From positions 543,664 through 607,663 of the forward strand of contig OY843585.1 of the NCBI GenBank assembly GCA_963692945.1: a DNA stretch of 64,000 bases. The letters are read 5' to 3'. This DNA is from Bdellovibrionales bacterium (GTDB lineage Bacteria > Bdellovibrionota > Bdellovibrionia > Bdellovibrionales > UBA1609). Every line of letters starts with the position of its first letter. Within the stretch, counting starts at the first letter, position 1. The notes beneath the pieces were generated by a model. It worked only from the letters and a program-made list of their open reading frames with translations. It was not told the DNA's origin and searched no databases. The translations under genes were made by a program, and so were the position numbers. Positions 1,466 to 57,266 of this stretch are shown in pieces.

Positions 1466-1468
1466 TAA

Positions 1469-2902: not shown

Positions 2903-2971
2903 ATGTCTAAAAAAAGACTTTTAATACTTGAAATTTTCATTTATATTTATACAATAAAAAAATGGATATAG
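2903..2971 (+). CDS. Candidate 22-codon micro-ORF (MSKKRLLILEIFIYIYTIKKWI)
   Basis: Its ATG immediately follows the TAA of the upstream gene (TAAATG), and its last 10 nt overlap the next ORF's ATG. It could equally be a chance ORF in AT-rich DNA. Confidence 0.2.
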   Translation: MSKKRLLILEIFIYIYTIKKWI

Positions 2972-3510
2972 AATTAAGAAATAAACTAAAAGAGTATTGT
3001 ATTCCACTTATGCCTCTACCAAAACCCTTACAGAATGTGGATTATGAAAAGTTGATACATATATTTGAACAAAATTCTTCTAAACTTAAAAAACTATCCT
3101 ATAAACATACTATTAAAGGTACTAAAAAATCTATAGATCAATTTTTTTATGAAATGTATTTTTCTTATCATGAATTTAATTATCTCTTTAAAGATATGAT
3201 TCCCTTGAAGTGTCTAGGATATATGTATGTATATATATCACCTAATTATGAAATACCTATCCACAAAGATACAGGATATGCAAAAACAAAATTGGGATTC
3301 TTTCTAAAAGGCAATGCTCCCATTCGTTTTTATCAAAATGAGCATAGTTCTTCTTTTTTAGGTGAGTATAATTATGTATCTCCTTGTTGTATTAATGTGC
3401 TAAATTATCATAATGTTTCTAATAACCATTTAGAAAGATTAACTTTTTTTCTTCAGTTTGAGGAAGATTATAAAGAAGTTTATAAAAAAGTAACAAATAT
3501 TTATTCTTAA
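2962..3510 (+). CDS. Hypothetical protein (possible cupin/oxygenase-like)
   Basis: 182-aa ORF in the same operon-like run. The only hint is possible HxD...H metal ligands (PIHKD ... YHNV). No family recognised. Confidence 0.45.
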   Translation: MDIELRNKLKEYCIPLMPLPKPLQNVDYEKLIHIFEQNSSKLKKLSYKHTIKGTKKSIDQFFYEMYFSYHEFNYLFKDMIPLKCLGYMYVYISPNYEIPIHKDTGYAKTKLGFFLKGNAPIRFYQNEHSSSFLGEYNYVSPCCINVLNYHNVSNNHLERLTFFLQFEEDYKEVYKKVTNIYS

Positions 3511-3511
3511 A

Positions 3512-4420
3512 ATGATTTCTATCAATCATTTTAATAAGAAGACCTATGAAATTCCTGACAAAGAGATAGATTGTTTTCTTTCTAAAATCAATTCTTCCCA
3601 AGCTTTAAAATTTGTAAGAGATAAAAACACAGATAAAAAATTCATTGAGACTTATAGAAATTGGCTTTTTTCCAATAAAAATTATATGATGAATTCATTA
3701 GATGAAAAAAAATTTAATTCCTATATAATTTCTGGAATAACACAAAGTTTCCATGATTTTTATCAAATACATCATAATAAAATTTTAAAAGTCAGACGAG
3801 GGGAGTATCCCTATCATAAGGTTTTTTTTAAATCTATAGGAAGAAAATGGGGTTGGATTGAAGACGAGGGGCTTCATTCAAATGATTTTGTCATCATCTC
3901 TTATCCCTTTAGTGGTAATGGAAGTATAGGACATGAAACTAAAGAGATTCTGAATTTATGCAATAGGTATCAAGTTCCTGTTTTATTAGATTGTTGTTTT
4001 TGGGGGTTATCTAGCCCCTTATCTATTGATTTAACAGAATATCCTTGCATTGAAATAGTTTCTTTTTCTTTATCAAAATTTTTTAATATTGGAAGATTAC
4101 GTATAGGCATGATGTATTCTAAATATAAGGAACAGGCTTCAGGAGCTATCCTCGGTCCTTATAACTATGTCAATAGCTGGTCAGCTTATATTGCTTTTGA
4201 ACTTATGAATCATTTTCCTATTAATTATATGTATAATAAATACAGAAAGGCTCAAAAAGCAGTATGCAAAGAACTTCATATAGAGCCTTCAGAAACTTTA
4301 TTTTTTGGATTAAGTAAAGAAGAAAAATGGAAAGATTTTTCTCGTGATGGAGTTTTTAATCGGATTTATCTTTCAGAGGCTATCTCTCAGTTTGTTCTTT
4401 CGCAGAGTATGGATAAATAA
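3512..4420 (+). CDS. Short class-I-aminotransferase-like PLP protein
   Basis: 302-aa ORF starting 2 nt after the previous stop. SLSKFFNIGRLRIG (nt 4067-4108, K189) fits the class-I aminotransferase PLP-attachment pattern as I recall it. The protein is shorter than typical aminotransferases. Confidence 0.55.
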   Translation: MISINHFNKKTYEIPDKEIDCFLSKINSSQALKFVRDKNTDKKFIETYRNWLFSNKNYMMNSLDEKKFNSYIISGITQSFHDFYQIHHNKILKVRRGEYPYHKVFFKSIGRKWGWIEDEGLHSNDFVIISYPFSGNGSIGHETKEILNLCNRYQVPVLLDCCFWGLSSPLSIDLTEYPCIEIVSFSLSKFFNIGRLRIGMMYSKYKEQASGAILGPYNYVNSWSAYIAFELMNHFPINYMYNKYRKAQKAVCKELHIEPSETLFFGLSKEEKWKDFSRDGVFNRIYLSEAISQFVLSQSMDK

Positions 4421-4487
4421 TCTGTTGTATTTTATGGATCTTAATATGAGGAAGTGTAAAACGCTGAACTAGAATCTAGTAGAGGAC

Positions 4488-4847
4488 TTAACTTGCTTTT
4501 TCAAAGTATTTGCTTTGATTTTTCAAATCTATCAGATCAATAATACCTGTTATTTCTTTTCGGGTTCTGCTTTTTTTCCATTTTAAAACTTGATTGAGTA
4601 TTTTTTTGTTAAGACTCTTCATGAGTTGAGAAATAGTTTCTCCTGAAGTATGTGAAAAGAAAGTTTTTTTATTTGTTTTGATTTCTAATTTGCCTATAAA
4701 TTTATTTTTTTGATACTGCAAATCTATACGAATGACAGAATTGCAAGGGATTTTTTGAACGAGAGTATCTACCATGTTTTGAATGACTCTGTTTTGTTTT
4801 TGGTTCAGATTATAATGATGTGTAAAAATTTGAAAATTTTCTAACAT
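4488..4847 (-). CDS. hpf: Ribosome hibernation factor (HPF/RaiA family)-like
   Basis: 119 aa. Its size and alternating beta-alpha pattern resemble the HPF/YfiA family. An AGGAGG RBS lies upstream of the ATG. Confidence 0.5.
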   Translation of the reverse strand: MLENFQIFTHHYNLNQKQNRVIQNMVDTLVQKIPCNSVIRIDLQYQKNKFIGKLEIKTNKKTFFSHTSGETISQLMKSLNKKILNQVLKWKKSRTRKEITGIIDLIDLKNQSKYFEKAS

Positions 4848-4973
4848 ATTTTTTCCTCCTTTTTGAACTAGATATCTTAATAATAAATGATGTAAAAAAA
4901 GAATTGGGAATTTTTGTCAAAATTCTCAAAAAAGGAAGTGTTTTAACCTAAATTAAGAATCTCATAATTGAGA

Positions 4974-5160
4974 CAAAACTCTATTTCAAACATAAGCCTG
5001 TTAAGTAACTCTTATTTTAACGAGATTTGAAGATCTTACCCATATGCGAAAACCAGCAGGTTTTCTCTATGTTTAAATCTTTTATTTTCACGAGATTTGA
5101 AGAACATCTCTCCTGTGATGAAAAGCTCGTGAAAATAAAAATTCACACACTAGAGTTTTG
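4974..5160. repeat. Copy A of the interspersed TIR-bounded modular repeat (inverted orientation)
   Basis: Bounded by CAAAACTCTATTTC ... CACTAGAGTTTTG. Contains the S-module (atgcgaaaaccagcaggttttctcta) and a long hairpin (ttttattttcacgag / ctcgtgaaaataaaa). Confidence 0.85.
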
Positions 5161-5167
5161 ACAGAGT

Positions 5168-5566
5168 ATGGAATATAAAATAAAATATCTCTTAGTCTTA
5201 GAACCTATTTTTGGAGAAACTGTGAAAAAACAGCTTTTTTCTGTTGCTTCTATTTTAGAGGAGCTTTTTAAAAAACCAAAATCTCCATTATCTGAAGGTT
5301 ATTTTTTATGTCAATTGCATCAAATGTGGGAGGAGTTGGCTGGAGAAGAAATAGCAAAAGTGGCTCACCCTGTTGGATTTAAAAATCATCGCCTCACTAT
5401 TGCCTTACCAAGTTCTAGTCATGTTCAAGAGATGCATTTTGTGAAAGAAACTCTTAGACAAAAAATCAATCAAATTTTTCCAGATAAAAAAGTTAAGAGA
5501 ATCTATTTACAAGTTAAAAATTCAAAGCCTTTAAATTTTAAATCCATTAAAAAGATCATTTCTTAA
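5168..5566 (+). CDS. dciA: DUF721/DciA-like protein
   Basis: 132 aa. The WEELAGEEIAKVAHPVGFKNHRLTIALPSSSHVQEM pattern is typical of the DUF721 family. Confidence 0.55.
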   Translation: MEYKIKYLLVLEPIFGETVKKQLFSVASILEELFKKPKSPLSEGYFLCQLHQMWEELAGEEIAKVAHPVGFKNHRLTIALPSSSHVQEMHFVKETLRQKINQIFPDKKVKRIYLQVKNSKPLNFKSIKKIIS

Positions 5567-5632
5567 CTCGGATTTCTAAGTTACTTTTTTAGACTTCTTA
5601 GAATGATTTTGACAAATCCTCGTATTTCTACA

Positions 5633-6361
5633 TTATTTTTTCTTTTTAGACTTCTTAGAAAGGTCTTTTAAATATTTATACCTAGGTCTTTCTCCTAAAA
5701 GAATGAGCAATCTATTGTAAAGATTTCTGTTGTTAATGATAGACCCTAGGGAACCTTGTCCTGAATCCACTTTTCTTAAAATACTACTTAAAGATCTTAA
5801 GATAGAGGAAACTTCTTTCTTATTTGATTGAGATAAAAAGCTTGAAATATCTTTTTGATTTAAATTTTTCATAAATAGATCTACTTCTCCAATAAGACTC
5901 TCAATAGATTTTTTATTTTTTTCTCCACCACTAATCAAAGAAAGTATGTCTAAAGAAGGAGCTGTTTTTATATACTGTCCAGTAGCCAGTGTAGGGGCTG
6001 AAAGGTCATTTGTTGCAATATTGATATAGCGATCCCCAAGAGCTCCTTGCGTCTTAAGTTGTGCTGTGCTGGATTGATTGATCATAAAAAGATGATCTTT
6101 TTTTATGGTGAAAACAACTTCAATAGTTCCATCTTTTAAAAGAGTCATTTTAGCTACATTACCAGTTCTTGTTCCGTGAATAGTGACTTCACTTCCTACA
6201 TAAATTCCTCTCACTTCTTTATAAATACTTTTATAAAAATTAGATGATTTTAAAAAAGTCCCATCACTTGTTCCAATAACAATAGTGAGTAAAGTAAAAG
6301 CAGCTAATCCAATAAGAATAATGGCTCCGACAACAATTTGTTTGATAAAGAAAAATTTCAT
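5633..6361 (-). CDS. mlaD: MlaD (MCE-domain) component of phospholipid ABC transporter
   Basis: 242 aa. N-terminal TM helix followed by an MCE-like core (VRGIYVGSEVTIHGTRTGNVAKM). Overlaps the mlaF stop by 4 nt. Confidence 0.8.
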   Translation of the reverse strand: MKFFFIKQIVVGAIILIGLAAFTLLTIVIGTSDGTFLKSSNFYKSIYKEVRGIYVGSEVTIHGTRTGNVAKMTLLKDGTIEVVFTIKKDHLFMINQSSTAQLKTQGALGDRYINIATNDLSAPTLATGQYIKTAPSLDILSLISGGEKNKKSIESLIGEVDLFMKNLNQKDISSFLSQSNKKEVSSILRSLSSILRKVDSGQGSLGSIINNRNLYNRLLILLGERPRYKYLKDLSKKSKKKK

Positions 6362-7125
6362 TTTCCATTCCCTCCTTTAGTACCTTCCATAAAGTTTTTT
6401 ATTAAGACATTGTAACTTTTTTCTAATGTTTCTGGTGTTCCCATGGCTTGTATAGTTCCATCCAATAAAAGAGCAATACGATCTGATATTTTACGAGCAA
6501 CGGTCATATTGTGTGTAACTAAAATAGCAGTTGTTCCTCTTTTTTTAAGCTTTAACATCAATTTAACTAAATTAGCAGTATTATAAGGGTCTAAACTGAC
6601 CGTTGGTTCATCATAAAGTATAACTTTAGGTTTTAATATCATAGATCTAGCAATTCCCACTCGTTTTTTCATTCCTCCAGAAAGCTCAACTGGAAAAAGG
6701 TCTTCAGTTCCACTGAGTTCAAATTCTTCCAATTCACTCATGACTCTTTTACGAATAGCCCTTTCTCCTAATTTTGTGTGTTCTCTAAGAGGTAAGGCTA
6801 AATTGTTGAATACGGACATAGAATCAAAAAGAGCCCCATTTTGAAAGGCATAGGCTATCTTTTTTCTTATAGGAACGAGTTCTTCTTCAGAAAAATCTAT
6901 AATATTTTGATCTTCTATAAAAACTTGACCTTGGGTAGGTTTCATAAGTCCAATAATAGAGCGAAGAAGAGTTGTTTTTCCAGCTCCTGATTCTCCAAGT
7001 ATAGTTAAACATTCTTTTTCTTTTACAATAAAATTAACATCTTTTAAAACAGTTTTATTTCCATAAGAAAGAGAAAAGTTTTTTATTTCTATGAGAACTT
7101 TAGATTTGTCTTTATTTGTATCCAT
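6358..7125 (-). CDS. mlaF: MlaF ABC transporter ATPase
   Basis: Walker A GESGAGKTT, signature LSGGMKKRV, Walker B ILYDEP. Confidence 0.9.
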   Translation of the reverse strand: MDTNKDKSKVLIEIKNFSLSYGNKTVLKDVNFIVKEKECLTILGESGAGKTTLLRSIIGLMKPTQGQVFIEDQNIIDFSEEELVPIRKKIAYAFQNGALFDSMSVFNNLALPLREHTKLGERAIRKRVMSELEEFELSGTEDLFPVELSGGMKKRVGIARSMILKPKVILYDEPTVSLDPYNTANLVKLMLKLKKRGTTAILVTHNMTVARKISDRIALLLDGTIQAMGTPETLEKSYNVLIKNFMEGTKGGNGK

Positions 7126-7142
7126 TTTTTAAAAATCCTTTC

Positions 7143-7904
7143 CTAATAGTGTAAAAACGAATAGTAAAAATTTGTAAGTATTACATCGCCAAAAATAATT
7201 AATAAAGAAGAAGTTACAACAGATGTCATAGTGGCTCGTCCTATTTCATAAGAACCTTTTGAAATACTCAAACCATAGTGACAAGATGTTACAGCAATAA
7301 ATATAGCAAAGACAAAAGTTTTAAACAGACTAAAAAGAAAGAAAATAAGTTTAGGTGTATAAAGAGCTTTTGCAATAAAATAAACGGGATCTAAATTTAA
7401 ATAGGTGTAGCTAACATAAGCCCCTGTTAATAAACCAACAATACTTACAAAAAGAGAAAGAATGGGAATAATCACTACACAAGCTAGTACTTTGGGAATA
7501 ATGACCCTTTTTGTGTAAGAAATACCCAAAGCCCGAAAAGCATCGATTTGTTCTGTAACTTTCATAGTCCCTATTTCTGAAGTGATACCAGCTCCAATTC
7601 TTGCTGCAAGAATAAGAGGGGCTAAAACTGTTGCAAACTCTCCTAAAATAGCCAGTGCTAAAATTTTTGGGACATACATTTTAGCACCATATTTTTCTAG
7701 AGAGACACCAATATGTAAAGCTAGGATGAAGCCTAAGCAAATCCCTAAAACAATAATAATAAAGAGGGAGCGATACCCAAAGTCATACATATTTTTTATA
7801 AGTAATTTGTAATAAAAAGGCCGTTGCCACATTTGTTTCATAACTTGCCAAGAAATAGAACAAAAACTTTTTACAAAATAAATATAAGATAGGATAGTGT
7901 TCAT
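7143..7904 (-). CDS. mlaE: MlaE ABC transporter permease
   Basis: 253-aa polytopic protein adjacent to mlaF and mlaD, with MlaE-like length and helix pattern. Confidence 0.8.
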   Translation of the reverse strand: MNTILSYIYFVKSFCSISWQVMKQMWQRPFYYKLLIKNMYDFGYRSLFIIIVLGICLGFILALHIGVSLEKYGAKMYVPKILALAILGEFATVLAPLILAARIGAGITSEIGTMKVTEQIDAFRALGISYTKRVIIPKVLACVVIIPILSLFVSIVGLLTGAYVSYTYLNLDPVYFIAKALYTPKLIFFLFSLFKTFVFAIFIAVTSCHYGLSISKGSYEIGRATMTSVVTSSLLIIFGDVILTNFYYSFLHY

Positions 7905-8416
7905 TTTGGTTGGAATCCTTTTATGAATTTTTGAAAAATGGCTCTTTCTTTTTTAAAAGATTTTTCAGAGTCAGCTATAAAATTTAAAATATAAAAGCAG
8001 TTGTTTTTTACTAAAGTGTACATTCCACTCATTGTTTGTTCACCATCTGGATGATAAATCTTTATAACGGAATAAATGTGATTTTTTGCCCTTTGTGTTT
8101 TTATAAGTCTGTAATTTTCTATTTCAGAAAGAGTGCCTTGCTCTATATCCTTTAAAGATTGAAGATTCCTAGAACAATTAGAAAAATAAGATAAGTAACT
8201 ATTGGTTTGTTGATTCCACCAAAGAGCATCTAGTTGAGAATGTGTTTGTCGTTTATAAGGTTGTGGTGGAGACCAAAATTTGACTTGATCTGCTTTTTTA
8301 TCTTTAGTCTTTTTTAAAACCATACTGAAAGCAGACTTTCTTAAAGAAGAACAGTGAGCTGTCAGGATGATAATACATCCTAGAAAGATATATTGTTTAA
8401 AAAGAAATGGTTTCAT
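7901..8416 (-). CDS. Hypothetical exported protein, first gene of the mla operon
   Basis: 171 aa with an N-terminal hydrophobic signal. Its stop overlaps the mlaE start (ATGA). Confidence 0.5.
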   Translation of the reverse strand: MKPFLFKQYIFLGCIIILTAHCSSLRKSAFSMVLKKTKDKKADQVKFWSPPQPYKRQTHSQLDALWWNQQTNSYLSYFSNCSRNLQSLKDIEQGTLSEIENYRLIKTQRAKNHIYSVIKIYHPDGEQTMSGMYTLVKNNCFYILNFIADSEKSFKKERAIFQKFIKGFQPK

Positions 8417-8477
8417 AAGTAAGAACCCCTCTCTATAGTTTGAGAGGGAATTTCAAACCTTAAGGGATATTAAAATA

Positions 8478-8750
8478 TCAATTTAAATAGTCTTTAAAAT
8501 CTTTACCAGGTTTAAATTTAGGGGAAGTGCAAGCAGGAATTTGAATCTCTTCTCCTGTGTGTGGGTTACGACCCATTCTTGCCTTTCTTTCGTTGGCTGT
8601 AAAAGTTCCAAAGCCAATCAGTTTGACAGTTTCTTTTTTCTTCAAAGTGTTTTTAATGATATCAAAAAAAGAAACTACTACTTTTGTAACATCTGCTTTG
8701 GAAAGACTTGTTGCCTCAGCGATTTTATCTATGATTTCTGCTTTATTCAT
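8478..8750 (-). CDS. hup: DNA-binding protein HU
   Basis: 90 aa. MNKAEIIDKIAE...GFGTF...RKARMGRNPHTGEEI matches the HU/IHF family signature. Confidence 0.95.
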   Translation of the reverse strand: MNKAEIIDKIAEATSLSKADVTKVVVSFFDIIKNTLKKKETVKLIGFGTFTANERKARMGRNPHTGEEIQIPACTSPKFKPGKDFKDYLN

Positions 8751-8917
8751 AATTATACCTCTTTTCTATAATTTGTTTGTGGATTAAAAAAACCAATAAC
8801 AAGAATTAGATTTTTTCCATTTGTGTGAAAAAAATCAAGCCTTTTTTTAAAAAAATTAAATTTTTTTAGTTAGATGGTGCCCAATGTGGTATTTTCTAAT
8901 TAATTTTGACTTTAAAT

Positions 8918-9676
8918 TTAATTTGTGTATTGGTCGCAAGTGTATCTATTGCTTTTTACACGTGAAGATGTGTATCTTTGTATACTGGCGGAGATGATTT
9001 CTCGTTCTGAGGAATTTGCCCCATAAGTTATATCAAGATTTAGGGTGTCATTTTTGACATGATTGCTACCGTTTGATCGTATAATTAATGAGAAACTTCC
9101 ACCAAGACCAGCATTTGGAAAAAGCCTGATATTAAATCCTTTGTTTTTATTGATAGCTTGTGCTGTTCCTTTAACGGTAAAAGATTCACCCCAATTGGAA
9201 TTGCTAGAAGATCGTGGTTGAATAGTTACAGAAGCTTCGGTAGGCAATTGGTCTGTGTGAAATTTAATTTCAATAAAACCATTTCCAAGCCAATTTCTAC
9301 ATTTTTTTTCTTTGTTATTTTTACCAAAAAGATTGTAAGAGTAGTCTAAACCCAAAAAATTACCATTTGCATCAAAACGACGGTTTTTTGTAGATCGGCT
9401 TCCAAGAGTTTGATGGATTTGACCACCTCCTGGCAAATTATAAATTCTATCCGTTCCACACCTTCTACAAGAAAACATCAGTAATTCATATTGACCAGAG
9501 TCATGTACATTAAAGTTATTACTAAAAAAGATGCCGGTATTTTCTGGACTAGTAGTTTGGGGAGCTGCAGGTGGGGCTGTAGGAGCATCACCTCTTACAA
9601 AACCAGACTTGTTGTTACAGCTTAGAAGGAAAAAGAAAATCAGGCTTACACTAGATAAATAAAAATATCTTTTCAT
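8918..9676 (-). CDS. Hypothetical lipoprotein
   Basis: Start moved to the internal ATG at 9676, which has a GAGGAG RBS. Signal plus lipobox FFLLSC. No family recognised. Confidence 0.55.
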   Translation of the reverse strand: MKRYFYLSSVSLIFFFLLSCNNKSGFVRGDAPTAPPAAPQTTSPENTGIFFSNNFNVHDSGQYELLMFSCRRCGTDRIYNLPGGGQIHQTLGSRSTKNRRFDANGNFLGLDYSYNLFGKNNKEKKCRNWLGNGFIEIKFHTDQLPTEASVTIQPRSSSNSNWGESFTVKGTAQAINKNKGFNIRLFPNAGLGGSFSLIIRSNGSNHVKNDTLNLDITYGANSSEREIISASIQRYTSSRVKSNRYTCDQYTN

Positions 9677-9769
9677 ATCTCCTCTATCGGTTTCTTCAAG
9701 AGAAATTTCTAGAGTAAAGTTGAAATACATCATTTTTTTATAGTTTTTAAGACTTTATGCCGAAAAATA

Positions 9770-9778
9770 TGGTATTAT
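9770..9778 (+). promoter_or_regulatory. Possible extended -10 element (TGgTATTAT) for ssrA
   Basis: The TGnTATTAT motif ends 12 nt upstream of the tmRNA 5' GGGG. Confidence 0.3.
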
Positions 9779-9790
9779 AGGTTGATTTTG

Positions 9791-10137
9791 GGGGTGTATT
9801 GGCTTCGACGTGGGTCATGACGCTTTTGGGAGCATGTAGAGGTTGCACAAGGTCCTCTTTAAAAATGTGTGTTTTTTAAACGGCAATTCTGTTGCCTTTG
9901 CTGCCTAATTTAGTGTAGCCGTTGAACCAAATTTTGGTGATGGATTTGGGGAAGCGACGCTTTTATCACCTCGGTCTTTCATTTTGTCTCAGGGTTAAAG
10001 ACTTAAATTTATGAGAAAACAATCAATAGAACTTTGTTCTTGGAGGTCTATTGATTTAATAAAACAAGAAACAAACATGTAGTTGCCTGAAAGAAGATTT
10101 CTTGCGGACATGGGTTCAATTCCCATCACCTCCACCA
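9791..10137 (+). ncRNA. ssrA: tmRNA (SsrA)
   Basis: 5' GGGGTGTATTGGCTTCGACG and a tRNA-like 3' end GGGTTCAATTCCCATCACCTCCACCA. The internal tag frame ends NGNSVAFAA-TAA (nt 9879-9908). Confidence 0.9.
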
Positions 10138-10142
10138 TTTTT

Positions 10143-10298
10143 AAAACTCTAGTTCTAAAAAGTATTTCCTACTCTTAATTTTAACGAGCTTTTCATCGTA
10201 AGAGGGACACTCTTCAAATCTCGTTAAAATTAAGAGTTGCTTAACAGGCTTATATTTGAACTAGAGAAAAACTCCGTTTTTTTGCAACTAGAGTTTTG
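10143..10298. repeat. Copy B (most complete) of the TIR-bounded modular repeat, immediately 3' of ssrA
   Basis: Bounded by AAAACTCTAGTTC ... CAACTAGAGTTTTG. Contains a 17-bp-stem hairpin (10172-10188 / 10220-10236), a linker and an S-module variant. Confidence 0.9.
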
Positions 10299-10344
10299 TT
10301 ATTTAGGATTAAAGATTGTATTTTCTTTTTCCGATAGAATAGAT

Positions 10345-10893
10345 ATGGGATATTTATCTCCTTTTTTAATAATTCTGATTGTAGTGTTTTCTCCCTTTAC
10401 TTTTTCTATGACTTTAGGGGATGTGACAGCCGCTACAGCTATCCAAAACACTTTAAATAGTACAGCAGCTCCTTCCTATGGAAAAGTGCTTGATAAAGTG
10501 AAAACGGATCTAAAAAAAGCTGAAGAGGTAGAAAGGAAAAAACAAGCTGAATTAAAAGATTTGAATCTACATCCAGAATCAACAACAAAACCATTAGCAG
10601 AGGACAGAAATAATATTCAATCGGAGGATTCATTAGATTTTAAAAATGATCCTCATTTAGAAAATTTGAGTCGCAATGAATTAGACGAAAGATTTGATGA
10701 TGGTGGTGTTGAAATCAATGTAGATAAAATAATGGATTACACCAAAAAAACAGTTATTTTTTATAAGGGTAATTGTGAAAATAAAGATGGAAGAACTCCG
10801 AGTTCAACCTGTAGTCCAATGCCTGTTTTGACAAATATCAAAAGTGTTATTTTCAACTATGCTCATAAACGTGGTGAGTTCAAAAAAAAGTGA
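10345..10893 (+). CDS. Hypothetical secreted protein
   Basis: The ORF-track start (10237) lies inside the repeat element. The internal ATG at 10345 begins a signal-like MGYLSPFLIILIVVFSPFTFS. No clear RBS. Confidence 0.4.
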   Translation: MGYLSPFLIILIVVFSPFTFSMTLGDVTAATAIQNTLNSTAAPSYGKVLDKVKTDLKKAEEVERKKQAELKDLNLHPESTTKPLAEDRNNIQSEDSLDFKNDPHLENLSRNELDERFDDGGVEINVDKIMDYTKKTVIFYKGNCENKDGRTPSSTCSPMPVLTNIKSVIFNYAHKRGEFKKK

Positions 10894-11101
10894 ACGGATT
10901 TATTCTTTAAAAGTCCTTAGTATCTATTAAAATGAAATATTGAAGTATTACACAAGTGTCCTTTCATTTTTCTAACTTGTTTTTCGTTTATAAGTTTTTG
11001 TTTTTAAAATTTTTTCGTTGAATGGTATAAAAGTTCACTTCCTTACACGGCTGAATAAGGTTGCTTTTTAATAGCTTTTATATTAACTAGATATGTAATT
11101 T

Positions 11102-11177
11102 GCGGGAGTAGCTCAATTGGTAGAGTATCAGCCTTCCAAGCTGAGGGTTGCGGGTTCGAAGCCCGTCTCCCGCTCCA
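11102..11177 (+). tRNA. tRNA-Gly (anticodon UCC)
   Basis: Cloverleaf read by eye: acceptor GCGGGAG, anticodon stem TCAGC/GCTGA, loop CTTCCAA, T-loop GGTTCGAA, encoded CCA. Confidence 0.95.
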
Positions 11178-11182
11178 TTTTA

Positions 11183-11697
11183 CAAAACTCTCGTTCATTT
11201 CTAATACCCTTTTCTTTTTAGGAGATTTTCGTCGTAGGAGGGATACTCCTCAAACACCTAAAAAGAAAAGGATTCTTATTATTTGAACTAGAGAAAACCT
11301 ACTGGTTTTCGCATTCTGGTTTTCGCATGAGGGGCTTTGTTCTTCAAATCTCGTTAAAATAAGAGTTGCTTAACAGGATTATATTGAACTAGAGAAAACC
11401 TACTGGTTTTCGCATGAGTGAACTAGAGAAAAACTGCTGGTTTTTGCATATAAGTCTTTATTGTTTGAACTAGAGAAAACCTACTGGTTTTCGCATGAGG
11501 GGCTTTGTTTTTCAGATCTCGTTAAAATAAGAGTTGCTTAACAGGATTATATTGAACTAGAGAAAAACTGCTGTTTTTCGCATATAAGTCTTTATTGTTT
11601 GAACTAGAGTTTTGGAAATGGAATTAGAGAAAACCTACTGGTTTTTGCATGAGTGAACTAGAGAAAACCTACTGGTTTTTGCATACTGGTTTTCGCA
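11183..11697. repeat. Compound array of the modular repeat (H2 hairpin, H1 half-copies, seven S-modules)
   Basis: Full S-modules (GAACTAGAGAAAACCTACTGGTTTTCGCAT or close variants) start at 11285, 11386, 11420, 11467, 11554, 11621 and 11655. The H2 hairpin arms are at 11208-11222 and 11257-11271. Confidence 0.9.
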
Positions 11698-11715
11698 AAG
11701 GAAATTCTAAACAAT

Positions 11716-12342
11716 TTATTTTGTGCCATCATGTTTATGTTGAAGATCTTTTCTTTGATCTATAGACCATACATCTAATCGACCTCCACCTAAATCTGCA
11801 CAAGCTAAAGCGGTGTATTGTTTGTATTTACCACTTGTTAGTTTAACTTTTGCTTTCAAGCTTCCAGTGATACAAGCTCCACTTAAGTTTTTAACAGCTG
11901 TGTTTTTAGTAGAATTATTAGATTCTTTTAAAAAACATTCAGTACTACTTCCTGAAGCAAAATCTTTACCACAAACTTCAAAGGTGTTGGAATTGCCTGT
12001 ACCATTAGCAGTTCCTCCTATTGCACAATCTGGAATCCCAGATGTAGGACAACTCGTTCCTCCATCAATAGGGCTTTTGTCAAAACCTACATTGTAAATG
12101 TATTTTCCTACGAGGTCTAAATTGATGGCCTCTAAATTATAATGATAGTTATTGTTATCTATATAAAAAATTCTCTCATTGCCATACAAATTGGAGAGCA
12201 ATATTTTGGCTTCTGTTGTTTTTCCTTGTCTTTTTGTTTTCATAAAACTGATAACAGCCATAGAAGAAAGAATGGCTATGATACTTACCACAGTAAGTAG
12301 TTCAATGAGAGAGAAACCTTTGGACTTGTTGATAGAATACAT
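11716..12342 (-). CDS. Type IV pilin-like protein
   Basis: N-terminus MYSINKSKG|FSLIELLTVVSIIAILSS: prepilin cleavage motif with Glu+5. C-terminal Cys residues are available for a disulfide loop. Confidence 0.85.
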   Translation of the reverse strand: MYSINKSKGFSLIELLTVVSIIAILSSMAVISFMKTKRQGKTTEAKILLSNLYGNERIFYIDNNNYHYNLEAINLDLVGKYIYNVGFDKSPIDGGTSCPTSGIPDCAIGGTANGTGNSNTFEVCGKDFASGSSTECFLKESNNSTKNTAVKNLSGACITGSLKAKVKLTSGKYKQYTALACADLGGGRLDVWSIDQRKDLQHKHDGTK

Positions 12343-12440
12343 CTTATCTTTTTATAGCATTATTTTGTTATGTTTTATCTATTTATTTTTTTATACTCAA
12401 CATCCGTCCTAATTTTTTGTTAGTGATTGATAGCTAGGTT

Positions 12441-13811
12441 TTATAATTTTTGTTTTCCTTTCATTCTTTGAAAGAGTTTCTTTATAAAACCTTGTTTTTC
12501 AGAGTTAGATTTAATGTGAGCAGTCTCGGCATTGACAACAAGACTCTTCTTTGTTGCTTTAGGTTTAGAAATCACTTTCACTCTATTTTCAGGAATAGGA
12601 GTGAACCACATATCAATAACATGTCCTTTTTGTTCAACTCCCTTCTTGTTCACAAAAATAAAATTAGACTTTTCAATCTCTTTTGCTCTTTTACCATATT
12701 CCACCTGAGAACTTTCATAATCTAAAGAGATTTGTTTGATTTTTTGATTTAAAGGAATTTGTTCGGTTTTTTCTCCCACTCCGTTTCTATTGACATCTTT
12801 CCATAAAACCAGTTGAGAAAAAACTTTATCTTTAGCATTGATTTGATTGTCTTTATTAGAGTCAAAATCTTTTAAAGATTCAAATCCATTTTCGTAAACA
12901 GTGTCTAAGCCTGTATTTCCAAATAACTCATAAGCCTCTGTTATTTTTCCATCTTTATTTTGATCTAAAGCTATAAAATAACCAGGGGAGTCTTTCTCCG
13001 GCCATGTGACATAGCGATTGTTTTCCATAAGAGGAAAAGTACTTAACCCTGTAAAGAGAGGTCTTTGTTGATTAAAGAAAACCATTAGAGGAGAGGTGTA
13101 GTATCTACAACCCGAAGCACTGCTTGTTGTTTTTATAGGAATGGATAAACCGATGGTAACGCTACCTGCTCTGGAAGTAAGGTCATCAAGGTTAGGGGAG
13201 TAAGATACACCTAGATGTCCTTTTTTACCCCAAGTCGTCCAAAGACTCAAAGCCGATACTGCATCACCTCTTCGTTGCCTAACTTCTACAGACCTAGTTT
13301 TATCTCTTCGTTCTATACGGGCACTTGGAACAAACTGTACAGTTATATGGTTTCTATCTCCAGAAGCTCGGTAATTTCCAGTCGCTAATACACTAGCCGT
13401 TGCTCTGTAATTGTCAGTCCAAGCTGCAGAAGCGATTTCATAAACTTTAGTTGCACGACTGTCACTAATAGTCTTGCTTATTCTTGAATGAACAAGTGCA
13501 GAAGGGAATTCAAAAACAATATATTTTTTATTATCGGCAGAATCAACAACTGGCATTCCAATAACAATATGAGTTGATCTATCAAGATTAAGAGGTGATC
13601 CTCCCCATCTTGAGTTTGTAGATATACATATAGCGGAGATACTTGTTGTTACTTTATGGTCTATAAAAACCTTTTTATCTTCTGGTGGTTCAGGAATATC
13701 AGCAGTGCTTGCTACACCTCCCCAATCTCCTCCTGTGCTTGTCTGGATGCTCACTGCAGAAAAAGCGTTTATTGAAGTAACACTCAAAAATAAAATAATA
13801 ATTTTTTTCAT
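12441..13811 (-). CDS. Secreted protein with EF-hand-like calcium-binding loops
   Basis: Signal peptide MKKIIILFLSVTSINAFSA. Calcium-loop candidates DQNKDGKITEAYE, DSNKDNQINAKD and DVNRNGVGEKTE in the C-terminal third. Confidence 0.6.
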   Translation of the reverse strand: MKKIIILFLSVTSINAFSAVSIQTSTGGDWGGVASTADIPEPPEDKKVFIDHKVTTSISAICISTNSRWGGSPLNLDRSTHIVIGMPVVDSADNKKYIVFEFPSALVHSRISKTISDSRATKVYEIASAAWTDNYRATASVLATGNYRASGDRNHITVQFVPSARIERRDKTRSVEVRQRRGDAVSALSLWTTWGKKGHLGVSYSPNLDDLTSRAGSVTIGLSIPIKTTSSASGCRYYTSPLMVFFNQQRPLFTGLSTFPLMENNRYVTWPEKDSPGYFIALDQNKDGKITEAYELFGNTGLDTVYENGFESLKDFDSNKDNQINAKDKVFSQLVLWKDVNRNGVGEKTEQIPLNQKIKQISLDYESSQVEYGKRAKEIEKSNFIFVNKKGVEQKGHVIDMWFTPIPENRVKVISKPKATKKSLVVNAETAHIKSNSEKQGFIKKLFQRMKGKQKL

Positions 13812-13923
13812 TATAAGCTCCTTTATTAATTTCTATTTATCAAGTTTAATTCTATAGTATTTTTTTGTTTTTTAAAAATTATTTGAACTTTTTATCTTAA
13901 AACTGTCTCAAGATGATACACAA

Positions 13924-13979
13924 CAAAACTCTAGTTCAATATAATAAGAAAAGGGTATTAGAAATGAACTAGAGTTTTG
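13924..13979. repeat. Copy D: minimal TIR-bounded element (56 bp)
   Basis: CAAAACTCTAGTTC and GAACTAGAGTTTTG flank a 28-bp core and abut the stop of the upstream pilin-like gene. Confidence 0.85.
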
Positions 13980-14951
13980 TTAAGGGAGGAACTCAAAAGA
14001 GATTTTGATTTGAGTGTTGGTCACATCGGTTCTTTTAAATTTCATATGTTTCATATTATTTGCAAATAAAAAGCCATTGCTTTGATCGCAATTTAAAGAT
14101 GTATTTTTATCTTTTACTATGCAGTGGTAAATGTCATTATCTTTCATGGAATAGATAGAGATATGAATAATTCCAGCAAGAACCACATCCTGACCTCCAA
14201 TAAGATGAGAGTTCAAAACAAAATCTTTTATGTTTCCATAACTGGTTCCTCCAACGGCAGGGTTTAAAAAATTAAAATGAGACCCCATTCTGGTGTATTT
14301 TGTTACTGAAGGAGTATCGCTATGATGTCTTACTTTAGGGCAACTTGAAGTGTGATTCTTTGTTCCCATATAACCTAGAAAAGCAGGTTTTCTTGGAAAA
14401 TCATTCATATTTAAAGGACGAGCGTTTCTTAAAAAAGCAGGAATATATAAAAGCACAAGTCCATTGTTTTTCCATAAATAGTTTAGTTCTTGTCTTAAAT
14501 AACAATCATTAAAATAAGCATCATTCGGAGTTACGGTATTGATGAGGTCATCATAGTAATAATTAAAAAATTCCATAATATTGACACGTTTTACATTTTT
14601 AATGGATAGAAATAAAAACTTCTTGTTATTTTCTAAAGTAAAAATTCTATTTTTATGGGTTAAGCTGAAGGAGTGATAATCTGGTAATACATCAAAAAAG
14701 TTTTTATTATTATCATCTTTAACATTTAAAATGCCATAAGAGACGGCTATATTTTCAAGAGAGGTGTATAAAAATTTATTCAACCATTCTTCAGTGATTT
14801 TTTTATCCGCTTTTTTCTCAATATTCTTACCTTCTTTTGTTACCAATTGTAAAATGGATACAGAACCTAAAGTTACAAAAGCGAACATAGCAGCTGCAAC
14901 TATAAGTTCTACAATAGAAAAACCTTTATTTTTTTGTATAGATAATTTCAT
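13980..14951 (-). CDS. Minor-pilin-like protein (PilW-sized)
   Basis: N-terminus MKLSIQKNKG|FSIVELIVAAAMFAFV with Glu+5. 323 aa. Confidence 0.7.
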   Translation of the reverse strand: MKLSIQKNKGFSIVELIVAAAMFAFVTLGSVSILQLVTKEGKNIEKKADKKITEEWLNKFLYTSLENIAVSYGILNVKDDNNKNFFDVLPDYHSFSLTHKNRIFTLENNKKFLFLSIKNVKRVNIMEFFNYYYDDLINTVTPNDAYFNDCYLRQELNYLWKNNGLVLLYIPAFLRNARPLNMNDFPRKPAFLGYMGTKNHTSSCPKVRHHSDTPSVTKYTRMGSHFNFLNPAVGGTSYGNIKDFVLNSHLIGGQDVVLAGIIHISIYSMKDNDIYHCIVKDKNTSLNCDQSNGFLFANNMKHMKFKRTDVTNTQIKISFEFLP

Positions 14952-14971
14952 TTTTTAAATCCCACCTGTTT

Positions 14972-15487
14972 TTAATTTAAAGGAAGAAGCATTTTTAAAT
15001 CCAAGAAAGCTTTATAAGAGTAAGAGTTTGGAGTACTTCCTGTTTGTCTTTCAATGCCTACAATCCAAATTTTAAAAAGACCTCGTGTATTTGAAAGAGG
15101 TATGAGTGACAGCCCTATGCGACTTTCACAATGAGGGCAGTCCTCTGCTTTTATAATATCTCCCTTAGAATCTATGGCAAAAGCCAAAACATCAAAAACA
15201 GCTGGATTGGCTGATATATGGGATTGCTCTGTATTTGCAATACCTGCAAAACCACTTTTTCCAGGAGGATAAAATTGATAATTGTTAGAATGAGATAGAA
15301 GAGATTGCACAATATAAGCTGCACTTTTAGAAGCTAAAGAAGCATCGGAAACATCTTCTATTTGTTTTGTGACTCCTGATAGAAAACTGATAAGAGCTGT
15401 AAAAATAGTTAAAACAATAGCAGAGCTGATTAAGATTTCTACTATACCTACACCTTTGTTATTTTTTAGAAATTGAACAAACATCAA
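14972..15487 (-). CDS. Minor-pilin-like protein (PilV-sized)
   Basis: N-terminus ...LKNNKG|VGIVEILISSAIVLTIF with Glu+5. Its start overlaps the upstream stop (ATGA). Confidence 0.7.
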   Translation of the reverse strand: MMFVQFLKNNKGVGIVEILISSAIVLTIFTALISFLSGVTKQIEDVSDASLASKSAAYIVQSLLSHSNNYQFYPPGKSGFAGIANTEQSHISANPAVFDVLAFAIDSKGDIIKAEDCPHCESRIGLSLIPLSNTRGLFKIWIVGIERQTGSTPNSYSYKAFLDLKMLLPLN

Positions 15488-18400
15488 TTTAGAGTTCCTT
15501 TCTTTAAAATAGGCCGACTTATAAATTTTCTTATATAAAATTTACAACTTACTCTTCTACTATTTTCATCTATGTGAGCACAATCTGGATCTACCGAAGT
15601 CCAAGTGAAAGGGTCTGCTTCTTTCATTAAACCAACAGGATTACAACTAAGAGAGGTTGCTCGGTTTTCAGGGTGAATGGGATTGCCAAGAAAGTTTTTA
15701 TTATTATTACAATCTGATTTTGAAAGTGTTGTGTCTGTTCCGACTACATATTCATCACCTTTTGTTAAAATTTTCTGATCTCTTAATTCATAAAGAGCTT
15801 GAGCTTGCCAAATACTACCCCAAGTGACTCCATGTTGAAGGGCGGTTTTATGCACATTCAGTTGAGAGCTTATAACTGTCCCTATGATACGAAGAGGAGT
15901 GGTTCTTTGTTCTATAGTGAATTTATCACAAACAAAGAAACCCGTCACAAAATCAGCCGTGCTTTTAACTATGCAATGACCAAAGAGAGCCTTATTTTGA
16001 AATCTAAAATTTACACCAGAGCGAGTTGCATTTTTATCATCAAGTATGAAAAGGCTTTTGTCAGTCCCTCTGTCTGTAAAATCCCAAGAGCTTCTAGTGA
16101 AAGGACTTAAATCAAAAAACCAATCTAAGCTGCCTATAAAATTTTCTGGATCTTCAGTAGGGCAATGTTCGGATGTTATAAGTAAAGGAGTTGTTGAACG
16201 GTTGAGATCACTCGGGTCTTTAGCGAGCTGTCCTTTATTATTCTGTCCCCAGCAGTAGAGTTTAGCTTTATTATCAGTGGGTAGGACTTGAATGGCACAG
16301 GTGTGGGAATATCCAGTTGAGACCTGTTTAATGTTTTGGTTTTGAAAAGCATTTGTTGTTTCCGTTCCATTTTTAACGAGTTTGGGTTTTTTGCGAGGAC
16401 TTGTAGTGGTGCCATCTCCGATCTGTCCATAGAAATTATGTCCCCAGCAGTAAAGTTTGCCTGCTTGAATGGCACAGGTGTGGAATCTTCCAGTTGAGAC
16501 TGATGTGACATTTTGATTTTGAAAAGCACCTGAAACGGATGAAACGAGTTTGGGTTTTTTGCGATTATTTGTGTTGCCAGTGGTGCCATCTCCGATCTGT
16601 CCTTGGTTATTCCGTCCCCAGCAGTAAAGTTTTCCAGCTTGAATGGCACAGGTGTGGAAATCTCCAGTTGAGACTGATGTGACATTTTGATTTTGAAAAG
16701 CACCTGAAACGGATGAAACGAGTTTGGGTTTTTTGCGATTATTTATGCTGTCATAGGTACCATCTCCGATCTGTCCATAGAGATTATCTCCCCAGCAATA
16801 AAGTTTTTGGTTTTGGATGGCACAAGTGTGGTCAAGTCCAGTTGAGACCGATTGGACGTTTTGGTTTTGAAAAGGATTGGTTGTTTCCGTTCCATTTAAA
16901 ATGAGTGTGGGGCTTGCGCGACGATCTGTAGTGCCATCTCCGATCTGTCCATGGTTATTCTGTCCCCAGCAGTAAAGTTTTTGGTTTTGAATGGCACAGG
17001 TGTGGGAACCTCCAGTTGAGACCTGTTTAATGTTTTGGTTTTGAAAACCACTTGAACGGGATCGCAAGAAGTAGGGTCTTAGTGTTGGGATAGGAGTTAA
17101 GCGGCCATCTCCGATCTGTCCATGGTTATTCTGTCCCCAGCAGTAAAGTTTTTGGTTTTGAATGGCACAGGTGTGGGAACCTCCAGTTGAGACCTGTGTT
17201 ATGTTTTTTTCTGGAAAAAAGTTTTTTTCTACATTTAATAAATGTACATCATCTGTGTTACCAATTCCTAATTGCCCTGAAGCATTATATCCCCAACATA
17301 TATTTTTAGATACACTATTACCATCATCATCATATGCAATGCTAAAACAAGTATGATTTGCTCCTGTATCAAAAACATAAGTGGAACTTGGAAATGTAAC
17401 TTTCACAGCTTTCTTTTTATTATCTGTGGTGCCATCTCCGAGTTGTCCCGAGCCATTCCGTCCCCAGCAGTAAAGTTTTTGGTTTTGAATGGCACAGGTG
17501 TGGTGATATCCAGTTGAGACTGATGTGACATTTTGATTTTGAAAAGCACCTGAAACGGATAAAACGAGTTTGGGTTTGTTGCGATTATTTGTGTTGCCAG
17601 TGGTGCCATCTCCGAGTTGTCCGTAGTTATTCCGTCCCCAGCAGTAAAGTTTTTGGTTTTGGATGGCACAGGTGTGGTTACCTCCAGTTGAGACCGAATC
17701 CATTTGGATATTTTGGTTTTGAAAAGCATTTGTTGTTTCCGTGCCATCTGCAACGAGTTTGGGTTTGTTGCGATTATTTGTGTTGCCAGTGGTGCCATCT
17801 CCGAGTTGTCCGTAGTTATTCCGTCCCCAGCAGTAAAGTTTTTGGTTTTGAATGGCACAGGTGTGGTGATATCCAGTTGAGACTGATGTGACATTTTGAT
17901 TTTGAAAAGCATTTGTTGTTTCCGTGTCATTTGCAACGAGGGTGGGTGTGCGATGATTAAATGTGTAGCCAGTGGTGCCATCTCCGAGTTGTCCATAGGT
18001 ATTATCTCCCCAGCAGTAAAGTCTTCCAGCTTGAATGGCACAGGTGTTGTTAACTCCAGTTGAGACTTTTGTTACGTTTTGGTTTTGAAAAGCATTTGTT
18101 GTTTCCGTGCCATCTGCAACGAGTTTGGGTTTTGTGTGTTGATTTACTGTGTTGCCATCTCCGAGTCTTCCATAGTTATTTTTTCCCCAGCAGTAAAGTC
18201 TTCCAGCTTGAATGGCACAGGTGTAGTCACTTCCAGCTGAGACTTTTGTTACGTTTTGGTTTTCAAAAGCATTGGTTCCTCCTGTTGTGCCATCTGCAAC
18301 AAGTGTGGGTTTGTTGCGATAATTTGTGCTGCCATAGGTACCATCTCCGATCTGTCCATATTCATTACGTCCCCAGCAGTAAAGTCTTCCAGCTTGAATG

Positions 18401-28809: not shown

Positions 28810-29562
28810 ATGACATTTTTTATCACAGTTATTTTTGCCTTTACTGTTCTAGGTTCTTGTTTGTTCGTTGCTTTTTTTGGCAAAAAATGGAATTTAGACG
28901 CTTTAGTTGCCTTTAGTTCAGGTGGGCTTTTAGTGATTTGTTTTTTAGACTTTATGTCTCATAGTTTTGAGGATTTAAATCATAGTGAAATGGCAACTCT
29001 TCTTATTTTATCAGGTGTTTTATTACAAGGTTTTTTTGATATTTATATTGTCCCACGATTAAAATTTTTAGATAGGCTTGTAGAAAAAACACATTCTCAT
29101 TCTGTAGAAAACTCCCAACATCATCACACTCACATTTTATCAGCATCAACGGTTTGCTCAACAGTGGGGTGTTTAACAGTTTGTTCTTTTTTTGATGGGA
29201 TTCGTCTCTTTGCAGGCTTAAGTTTGGAGGGCTATGCCGCTGTTGTTACAAGTGTAGGTTTATTTTTCCACTTATTATCTGAGGGAGTTTTAGTTGCTAT
29301 TCTTGGTATCGGTTCAAATATAAAAACAAAAATCATTCTTCTATTAACTTCTTGTATCTCTGTAACTTTAATTTTAGGAGCCTATTTTGCAAAAAACTTT
29401 GCTGAATATTTTAATTTTCATTATTTGATTGCTTTGGCTACAGGGATGTTACTCTATATTTGTTTTATTCATTTAATTCCTTTTTCTATAAAAGGAAAAA
29501 GTAAGCACTGGTTTTTTGTTGGCTTGATTGTCTTTATAGGTCTTCATTACTTATTTCACTAG
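28810..29562 (+). CDS. ZIP-family metal (zinc) transporter
   Basis: 250 aa with ~8 TM helices. His-rich loop HSHSVENSQHHHTH. ZupT-like length. Confidence 0.6.
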   Translation: MTFFITVIFAFTVLGSCLFVAFFGKKWNLDALVAFSSGGLLVICFLDFMSHSFEDLNHSEMATLLILSGVLLQGFFDIYIVPRLKFLDRLVEKTHSHSVENSQHHHTHILSASTVCSTVGCLTVCSFFDGIRLFAGLSLEGYAAVVTSVGLFFHLLSEGVLVAILGIGSNIKTKIILLLTSCISVTLILGAYFAKNFAEYFNFHYLIALATGMLLYICFIHLIPFSIKGKSKHWFFVGLIVFIGLHYLFH

Positions 29563-29579
29563 AGTTTTGAACTAGAGTG
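29558..29579. repeat. Copy E: solo back-to-back TIR pair of the modular repeat
   Basis: CACTAGAGTTTTGAACTAGAGTG overlaps the ZIP stop codon. Confidence 0.7.
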
Positions 29580-31346: not shown

Positions 31347-31555
31347 CAAAACTCTAGTTCAATTCTAATATTTCCAACTCTTACTTTAACGAGCTTTTCA
31401 TCGCAAAAGGGACGCTCTTCAAATCTCGTTAAAGTAAGAGTTACTTAACATGTTTATTGGGTGAACTAGAGAAAACCTGCTGGTTTTCGCAAAATAGAGT
31501 TTTGTTATCTGAACTAGAGACAAACTTCTGTTTTTCGCATGAGTGAGGTAGAGTG
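31347..31555. repeat. Copy F of the TIR-bounded modular repeat
   Basis: CAAAACTCTAGTTC, an H1 hairpin variant (ctcttactttaacgag / ctcgttaaagtaagag), a linker and two S-modules. Confidence 0.9.
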
Positions 31556-57070: not shown

Positions 57071-57140
57071 TTTTATAAATCCTTTTTCTTTTTAGGCTTC
57101 TTCTTTTCATACAATAATTTTTTTGAGATGTCTATTTTAT

Positions 57141-57266
57141 AAAACTCTAGTTCAGGCTCTAATACCCTTTTCTTTTTAGGAGATTTTCGTCGTGAGAGGG
57201 ATACTCCTCAAACACCTAAAAAGAAAAGGATTCTTACTTAGTGAGCTAGAGAAAACCTACTGGTTT
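57141..57266. repeat. Copy G of the modular repeat (TIR + H2 hairpin + S-module)
   Basis: AAAACTCTAGTTC, the hairpin ccttttctttttagg / cctaaaaagaaaagg, then GAGCTAGAGAAAACCTACTGGTTTTT abutting the rdgB stop. Confidence 0.9.

Follow-up and report, generated by a model that had tools for sequence, protein, structure and literature searches.

A previously uncatalogued family of modular, hairpin-rich interspersed repeats, probably of MITE kind, in a Bdellovibrionales bacterium

A family of short repeats bounded by terminal inverted repeats (TIRs) is dispersed within the window (the whole 64-kb stretch of DNA analysed here). It is confined to non-coding DNA, its copies are near-identical, and it is absent from the orthologous sites of sister species. 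We interpret these repeats, with moderate confidence, as lineage-specific, recently expanded, non-autonomous and non-coding mobile elements of the MITE kind, with a mosaic build analogous to that of BOX or BIME elements. An enzyme with its gene elsewhere in the 1.56-Mb genome would mobilise the copies in trans, recognising the termini and/or the hairpins. A sequence-only reading of the same DNA had proposed an interspersed, TIR-bounded, modular family, and that description holds: the copies spread over 52 kb, two of them recur at the same sites in a second sample of the same species, and sister species have empty sites.

The 14-nt terminus CAAAACTCTAGTTC has 12 matches on both strands of the 64-kb window at up to two mismatches, compared with 1.32 expected, and this count was reached in none of 100 dinucleotide-preserving shuffles. 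For the 30-nt S-module described below, the window contains eight matches at up to three mismatches (0 expected) and 11 at up to five. A blastn-short self-map of the window places all similarity in six loci (4970-5165, 10138-10301, 11178-11700, 13920-13982, 31342-31560 and 57136-57270) and finds no further copies beyond them; a fragment at 29556-29579 is additional. The seven loci first proposed thus all exist, with coordinates that were exact or off by 1-2 nt. Together the six elements and one fragment amount to 1,275 nt, or 2.0% of the window (about 2% had been estimated), and to 14.7% of its non-coding DNA, which is itself 13.6% of the window; window G+C is 31.9%. Single units measure 56-209 bp and the compound element B 515 bp, and none contains an ORF. 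The elements, lettered A to F, and the features that they adjoin are as follows.

4974..5160, minus strand: element C, inverted, in the divergent region between a 119-aa ORF and dciA. In minus-strand order: left TIR 5160-5147, H3 hairpin variant (15-bp perfect stem), S-module 5073-5044, half-H1 5032-5009, linker L 5008-4989, right TIR 4987-4974.
9790..10137, plus strand: tmRNA gene, tag GNSVAFAA; its 3' flank is the insertion site of A.
10142..10298, plus strand: element A, canonical, starting 4 nt past the tmRNA 3' end. The left TIR (10142-10155, TAAAACTCTAGTTC) and a spacer lead to the H1 hairpin, whose perfect 18-bp stem encloses a 31-nt loop (10189-10219); then come linker L (10237-10256), an S-like module (10258-~10284) and the right TIR (10285-10298).
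11046..11095, plus strand: decayed relic (half-H1, linker and AACTAGA core), immediately upstream of tRNA-Gly.
11102..11177, plus strand: tRNA-Gly(UCC); its 3' flank is the insertion site of B.
11183..11697, plus strand: element B, compound, starting 5 nt past the tRNA-Gly CCA. Left TIR 11183-11196, then H2 hairpin; seven S-modules (11285, 11386, 11420, 11467, 11554, 11621 and 11655) with two half-H1 + L segments and short linkers between them; right TIR at 11601-11614.
13924..13979, minus strand: element D, 56-bp minimal form. Its 14-nt TIRs are perfect and enclose 20 nt from the left interior and 8 nt of linker; a pilin-like gene has its stop codon (13980-13982) directly next to the element.
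29556..29579, plus strand: fragment, occupying the 21 nt that separate the convergent ZIP and Glu/Leu-dehydrogenase-like genes. A TIR-R-like 14-mer (TCACTAGAGTTTTG) comes first and then, in direct orientation, a second GAACTAGAG core; the TAG that ends ZIP (29560-62) is inside CACTAGAG.
31347..31555, plus strand: element E, between an aldo-keto reductase stop codon and the start of a dehydrogenase-like gene. Left TIR, H1 hairpin (18-bp perfect stem), linker, S-module 31463-31492, degenerate right TIR 31491-31504, second S-module 31511-31540, degenerate core.
57140..57266, plus strand: element F, flanked by the prs promoter region and by the stop codon of rdgB (57267-57269). Left TIR 57140-57153, H2 hairpin, linker, S-like module; right TIR absent.

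The list departs from the earlier description at four loci. The right end of A stands as given, and its left end moves from 10143 to 10142, where T replaces C. The locus of F likewise stands with a start at 57140 in place of 57141, but F is not bounded by TIRs on both sides, since it ends in S-like sequence. The fragment had been taken for a solo TIR pair at 29558-29579; its two parts are not inverted. The 56-bp form exists and has perfect TIRs (its fold has -19.5 kcal/mol, z = -7.9), and it is an internal-deletion derivative of an H2-type unit in opposite orientation. Termini pair up at A, C, D and E.

The copies lie among conserved housekeeping genes, in both orientations and with unrelated flanks. 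No gene is interrupted by any copy (random-placement P ~1e-6, given that 13.6% of the window is non-coding), in agreement with the earlier statement that all copies are intergenic; the sole contact with a gene is that of the 24-nt fragment, which holds the ZIP stop codon. Other genes in the window include tRNA-Thr, tuf, tRNA-Trp, mlaDEF, dciA, radA, prs, pth, rplY, feoAB, opp, pilin-like genes and several genes for repeat proteins. The repeat proteins are unusually many (regions 42718-48429, 52297-53463, 27829-28716 and 20326-21093) and include a 1,903-aa ORF that has no Pfam match and is internally repetitive (75-114 nt), a protein with nine WG-beta repeats (period 102 nt), a pentapeptide-repeat protein and one ORF of 12-nt periodicity. 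At 23893-25179 on the minus strand, where secE-nusG usually follow tRNA-Trp, there is a 428-aa fusion of an N6/N4 DNA methylase and an Mrr-like nuclease, and beside it a 442-aa AAA/KAP-type NTPase (26363-27691); these may form a defence islet.

The canonical unit, seen in A and E, is ~125-160 bp long and has inverted 14-nt termini, CAAAACTCTAGTTC on the left and GAACTAGAGTTTTG on the right. The left terminus is followed by a spacer of ~10-15 nt, a long hairpin (module H, 61-67 nt), the 20-nt linker TTGCTTAACAGGCTTATATT, an S-type module that starts with GAACTAGAG, and the right terminus. S-modules are optional, with 0-7 per element; each opens with the GAACTAGAG core that is also found in the right terminus, and the two have their first 9 nt in common. 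A, D and E also have GTTTTGTTA in common past their right TIR. H1 and H2 had been listed as two hairpins, and both are real, but they are homologous variants of one hairpin module rather than separate modules; C contains a third variant. The perfect Watson-Crick stems measure 18 bp in A and E and 15 bp in B, F and C, and enclose a loop of ~31 nt with the conserved motif TTTTC..TC...GAG.GA....TC.TCAAA. Every difference between stem variants is mirrored in the opposite arm, including the indel between A and E, and G.T pairs are absent from the main stems; this pattern points to symmetry at the DNA level. RNAalifold reports double-sided changes in nine of 23 consensus pairs, from a gapless alignment that sets H2 one base out of register.

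The S-module contains its own stem-loop, GAAAACC-TACT-GGTTTTC, and its variants (AAAAAC...GTTTTT) retain a 6-7-bp stem. In the compound copies, S is followed by the right half of an H module (GAGGGGCTTTGTTCTTCAAATCTCGTTAAAATAAGAG), so that S plus half-H is an H unit with its left arm replaced. Entire elements fold as nested palindromes (-39 to -63 kcal/mol, z = -5 to -8), with the left terminus base-paired to the first GAACTAGAG core. Element B can be described as one left end plus eight segments, each opening with a GAACTAGAG-type core. Such mosaic and compound forms, among them tandem S-modules, half-hairpins, the 56-bp form and solo ends, would be secondary, probably produced when the numerous direct GAACTAGAG cores undergo slippage, deletion or unequal recombination with one another. 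Copies remain very similar: B and F are 94% identical over 110 nt (11200-11309) and several S-modules are identical at 30 of 30 positions, which argues for recent spread. The S arrays are direct, not alternating, and include tandem S hairpins at a spacing of 34 nt. They were also considered as a CRISPR array or as the repeats of a type III toxin-antitoxin system, and these candidates were rejected because of the irregular spacing (34, 47, 81, 87 and 101 nt) and because neither a toxin gene nor a cas gene lies next to the arrays.

The hairpins raise the question of which part of the element is recognised. In REP/BIME/REPIN-like or IS200/IS605-derived elements, it would be the hairpins and not the termini, by a single-strand HUH (Y1) transposase (such as a RAYT or TnpA) encoded elsewhere, and the S arrays would arise in the way that BIME clusters do. 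We think such an origin unlikely on the whole, but several features fit it: the perfect stems of 15-18 bp in three variants with mirrored changes and a conserved loop motif, the S variants that keep their 6-7-bp stem, and the direct tandem S hairpins at 34 nt. A target-site duplication (TSD) is not visible at any of the six elements, with few copies and with empty sites too diverged for base-level resolution. AAAC is often found at the left junction of empty sites and could be an IS200/605-type target motif, as judged by eye from short and ambiguous alignments. However, the elements end in clear 14-nt TIRs and the unit as a whole forms a nested palindrome, whereas REPs, REPINs and IS200/605 ends do not have such termini; the modules are also longer than typical REPs. 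Among window ORFs of at least 100 aa, there is no transposase, Y1/HUH enzyme, RAYT or recombinase, and thus no partner element with matching ends is known.

For these reasons of build, namely the terminal inverted repeats and the nested palindromes, we favour the MITE reading. Counted against it are the lack of a visible TSD, insertions that are not clean where flanks align (~39 nt of the relatives' sequence replaced at C) and the lack of a transposase in the window. The perfect mirrored stems and the conserved loop exceed what a passive MITE interior needs and fit hairpin-recognising enzymes better; with the lack of a visible TSD, they keep a Y1/HUH mechanism a serious rival. A broader non-DDE option, which we regard as rather improbable, is a new kind of palindromic cassette, either hairpin-guided and HUH-type or recombining at a core site; it would make no target duplication, would home to short AAAC or TIR-like sites, notably those immediately behind genes for tRNA and tmRNA, and would have a DNA-level mechanism that keeps its stems perfectly symmetrical.

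Comparison with related genomes shows where copies are present and where they are not. Prs and the dehydrogenase-like protein have 100% matches on one contig of 1,561,448 bp, and those more distant homologues that bear a name are labelled 'MAG: Bdellovibrionales bacterium'. The same species is represented by a long-read metagenome contig from an independent assembly (ERZ22155170 ctg20282l; sequences L006/L010). Three sister lineages contribute ~73 kb of syntenic DNA at 83-92% protein identity: ERZ26695812 (L004 and L008; 87% Prs/MlaE identity), GCA_029782575.1 (L005 and L007; 88-92% identity) and ERZ25073852 (L009; 83%). An nhmmer profile built from five copies gives E <=1e-20 only in the window and in L006/L010, with nothing significant in the ~73 kb of sister-lineage DNA. 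On these sequences, near-identical full copies are specific to the species of the window.

The ERZ22155170 contig is 99.3% identical to window 4486-11196 and has A and C at the same sites. It ends within the left TIR of B, in what looks like an assembly break at the repeat. Despite this identity, the DNA between the 119-aa ORF and glmS holds wholly different gene sets in the two (window 1-4486; L006/L010 6742-12200). The window has a twitch-domain radical-SAM protein and three further ORFs, the contig has hydroxylase-, IMPDH/FMN-dehydrogenase-, desaturase- and acetyltransferase-like genes, and sister species have nothing there. The extra ~10 kb of same-species DNA on this contig contains no copy of the repeat. 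Our view is of the 64-kb window and these ~10 kb, and to that extent the repeats could be a local segmental duplication or an assembly artefact instead of a dispersed family. We consider this extremely unlikely, since the copies occupy seven distinct intergenic sites across 52 kb, in either orientation and with unrelated flanks, and since A and C are reproduced in the independent assembly.

Four sites, those of A, B, C and F, are empty at their orthologous positions in the sister sequences (L004, L005, L007, L008 and L009). The tmRNA 3' flank is empty in L007, L008 and L009. Upstream of dciA, L007 and L008 do not have the 187-bp element C; the flanks are conserved on both sides, and ~39 nt of unalignable sequence stand in its place, so the insertion is not a clean one. 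At the F site, the rdgB-prs spacer measures ~197 nt (57071-57266) in the window but 87 or 143 nt in relatives (L004 and L005); prs retains its -10 region, and the relatives' TTGTTT -35 is displaced by the end of F. The neighbouring rdgB gene (Ham1-like; 57267-57899, minus strand) has an in-frame 15-nt insertion with a TAA near 57492 relative to the L004 orthologue (...AQYICAL[YISS*]SCLSPSG... in the window) and is probably a pseudogene or a split gene. The Glu/Leu-dehydrogenase-like gene beside E and the fragment is missing in close relatives, and the best other match is 56% identical.

Behind tRNA-Gly, L008 has tRNA-Thr ~150 nt on and no element. From this spacing, window 11178-20119 is extra DNA, absent in L008, where the two tRNAs are adjacent. 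The segment contains B, four N-methyl (pilin/pseudopilin-like) genes and a 1,494-aa RCC1-repeat protein with ~13 repeats of 174 nt, and it looks like a genomic island. On the other side of tRNA-Thr, a 73-bp unit is repeated three times in tandem (20178-20396; 100%, 100% and 93% identity), and each copy starts with the last 17 nt of tRNA-Thr and includes a terminator-like hairpin (GGAAG-AAAATA-CTTCC) and a T-run; a related 30-mer lies at 12399-12428. These repeats could be an att-site-like duplication at a tRNA 3' end. Since tuf follows ~200 nt after tRNA-Thr in L008, 20195-21990 is likewise extra DNA in the window.

The empty sites also bear on a different mechanism, site-specific recombination of cassettes at a palindromic CTAG core. 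Here the outer TIR halves (CAAAACT / AGTTTTG) would be the target and just the inner ones part of the element, excision would leave CAAAACTCTAGAGTTTTG and the circular junction would read GAACTAGTTC. L008 has AAACATTAGAGTTTTC exactly at the A site, which is near the predicted excision or empty-site product, and retains CAAAAC at the C-site junction; the lack of a visible TSD fits as well. On the other hand, the sequence common to three right ends (A, D and E) extends past the TIR (GTTTTGTTA), the empty sites for F and B have no such palindrome, and the window has no recombinase gene. The scheme further needs an 18-nt target that pre-exists at many sites, and this was not found in ~73 kb of relatives. 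We therefore rate such cassettes as very improbable.

The A site offers another view of the same junction. Directly after the tmRNA gene, L008 reads ...CCATTTAAACATTAGAGTTTTCTAATTTA, and the window reads ...CAACTAGAGTTTTGTTATTTA at the right end of A. Because GTTTTGTTA is common to the right ends of A, D and E, we read the post-tmRNA sequence of L008 as a decayed right end and not as a naive target; it may instead be a target that resembles the terminus. A second relic lies upstream of tRNA-Gly, where window 11046-11095 and L008 4633-4696 are orthologous and share indels, and where the sequence aligns to the half-H, linker and AACTAGA(G) of the elements. Relics shared with L008 imply that the family, or a progenitor of it, already existed when these species diverged. 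The family would accordingly predate the nearest-sister split and have expanded recently in the species of the window. In the FeoA-PALP spacer of L004 (6249-6301), GATTTTCAACGGAGTAGGGGTATTCTCC resembles the loop of the H module (GATTTTCGTCGTAGGAGGGATACTCC) with an nhmmer E-value of 0.16; the likeness may be due to chance or to a very old relic.

Placement next to gene ends suggests a further alternative, in which the repeats are cis-acting motifs kept for their function and not for mobility, such as terminators, RNA-stabilising hairpins or protein-binding arrays at GAACTAGAG. The adjacencies pointed out in the sequence-only reading are all present: elements adjoin or contain the stop codons of the pilin-like gene, ZIP and rdgB, and others follow ssrA and tRNA-Gly. 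Two of six elements start 4-5 nt past stable-RNA genes, and A and B have the same orientation behind them. In addition, the relic upstream of tRNA-Gly is conserved across species while nearby spacers have diverged, and the junction of C with its flank upstream of dciA forms TTGACA-17-TAAAAT. This is an 11/12 match ahead of the dciA start to which the ATG of the relatives corresponds in the alignment, and it may be the ancestral promoter (TTAACA-18-GATAAT in relatives). The dciA ORF is given as 5168-5566; alignment with three relatives sets its start at a GTG near 5222, preceded by a GGAG ribosome-binding site, so on this alignment the ATG at 5168 is probably wrong.

We nevertheless give the functional-motif reading little credence. 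Orientation relative to the upstream gene is mixed (forward for A, B and D, reverse for E and F), the orthologous sites of sister species work without elements, and sites resembling terminators or promoters show no excess over shuffled sequence. The stems are not G+C-rich and lack the U-tract of intrinsic terminators, and Rfam has no match. A role as intrinsic terminators was accordingly rejected (A+T-rich stems, no U-tract, no enrichment over shuffles), and so was a sigma-70 promoter in the linker (TTGCTT...TATATT), whose spacer is merely 8-12 nt. On the MITE reading, effects on neighbours would probably be incidental: stop codons supplied or adjoined, tmRNA and tRNA-Gly flanks occupied, and the -35 regions of dciA and prs reshaped.

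The sequence-only reading did not recognise the family and suggested a check against catalogued repeats and Rfam; neither Rfam nor the other collections searched provide a match. At Rfam gathering thresholds, the elements are unmatched and only the tmRNA and three tRNAs of the window pass. In E-value mode, region 9700-11800 (A and B) gives only sub-threshold chance matches to miRNA-like hairpins. The S-module, exact or degenerate, is not found in 185,579 GTDB species genomes, JGI metagenomes or IMG/VR; the GTDB and JGI collections evidently do not hold the source genome, as exact window motifs are missing there as well. A TIR-gap-TIR scan of the GTDB genomes returns three matches with unrelated interiors, where an estimated ~2 are expected by chance. 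H1 plus linker has no match in metagenomes, blastn against plasmid and phage collections has none, and literature searches, full text included, gave nothing relevant on the motifs, the assembly accession of the relatives or Bdellovibrio MITEs.

For annotation, the family is an uncatalogued repeat in a poorly known uncultured lineage (relatives are labelled Bdellovibrionales) with a genome of 1.56 Mb and 32% G+C. Gene ends and promoter regions (rdgB, ZIP, dciA and prs) are redefined by the copies, which matters for gene models. The family also partly explains contig breaks, as one metagenome contig breaks within a copy, and the copies can be used as markers for strain typing. In evolutionary terms, a reduced genome still hosts a recently active mobile repeat. 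The mirrored hairpin variants and the placement after tmRNA and tRNA-Gly are modest, mildly unusual clues to the mechanism of mobilisation; nothing in the family departs from the known classes of bacterial interspersed repeats.

Among these classes, Correia/NEMIS of Neisseria, RUP of Streptococcus pneumoniae and ERIC are bacterial MITEs. Like them, the present elements are small (56-200 bp), non-coding, TIR-bounded and found at many intergenic sites; the unit folds as a long imperfect palindrome, presence or absence varies among related genomes, and the ends can alter neighbouring promoters and transcript ends. Unlike them, the present family is unrelated in sequence, shows no visible TSD (Correia and RUP duplicate TA) and has no known cognate IS. 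It also differs in its perfect interior hairpin with mirrored variation and a conserved loop, and in the extra 30-nt module in variable number.

BOX elements of Streptococcus pneumoniae have the form boxA-boxB(n)-boxC. The likeness is in modularity, with a variable count of a short internal module (0-7 S-modules here), in intergenic position, in strong predicted structure and in the occurrence of compound and truncated forms. Sequence and host phylum are unrelated, however, and the present family has 14-nt TIRs, a central long hairpin and an S-module that shares its first 9 nt with the right terminus.

REP sequences are imperfect palindromes of 20-40 nt with a GTAG-type head, in alternating orientation and without element-level TIRs. 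BIMEs are built of REP/PU units of 35-40 nt plus specific linker motifs, and REPINs are mobilised by RAYTs. As in E. coli BIMEs and REPINs, the elements are mosaics of a few hairpin motifs and conserved linkers, are extragenic and often lie just past stop codons, and their stems are kept intact by compensatory changes. The differences are the TIR-bounded unit, the perfect 15-18-bp stems and the lack of a RAYT in the window; in addition, H is 61-67 nt and S 30 nt long, and S is direct rather than alternating. Thus, of the resemblance to MITEs and BIMEs proposed earlier, the MITE-like build stands, and the BIME part is an architectural analogy only, as these are not REP sequences.

Palindrome-associated elements derived from IS200/IS605 (PATEs) have no TIRs and have distinct left and right subterminal hairpins. 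They are like the present elements in being hairpin-rich and in a possible short target motif beside one end; they make no TSD, and none is visible here. They are unlike the present elements in that TIRs are present here and no TnpA or TnpB gene is nearby. In sequence, the family belongs to none of Correia, RUP, ERIC, BOX or BIME, and its resemblance to them is architectural, more loosely so for BIMEs. It is a previously uncatalogued sequence family, but of an ordinary kind of bacterial interspersed repeat.
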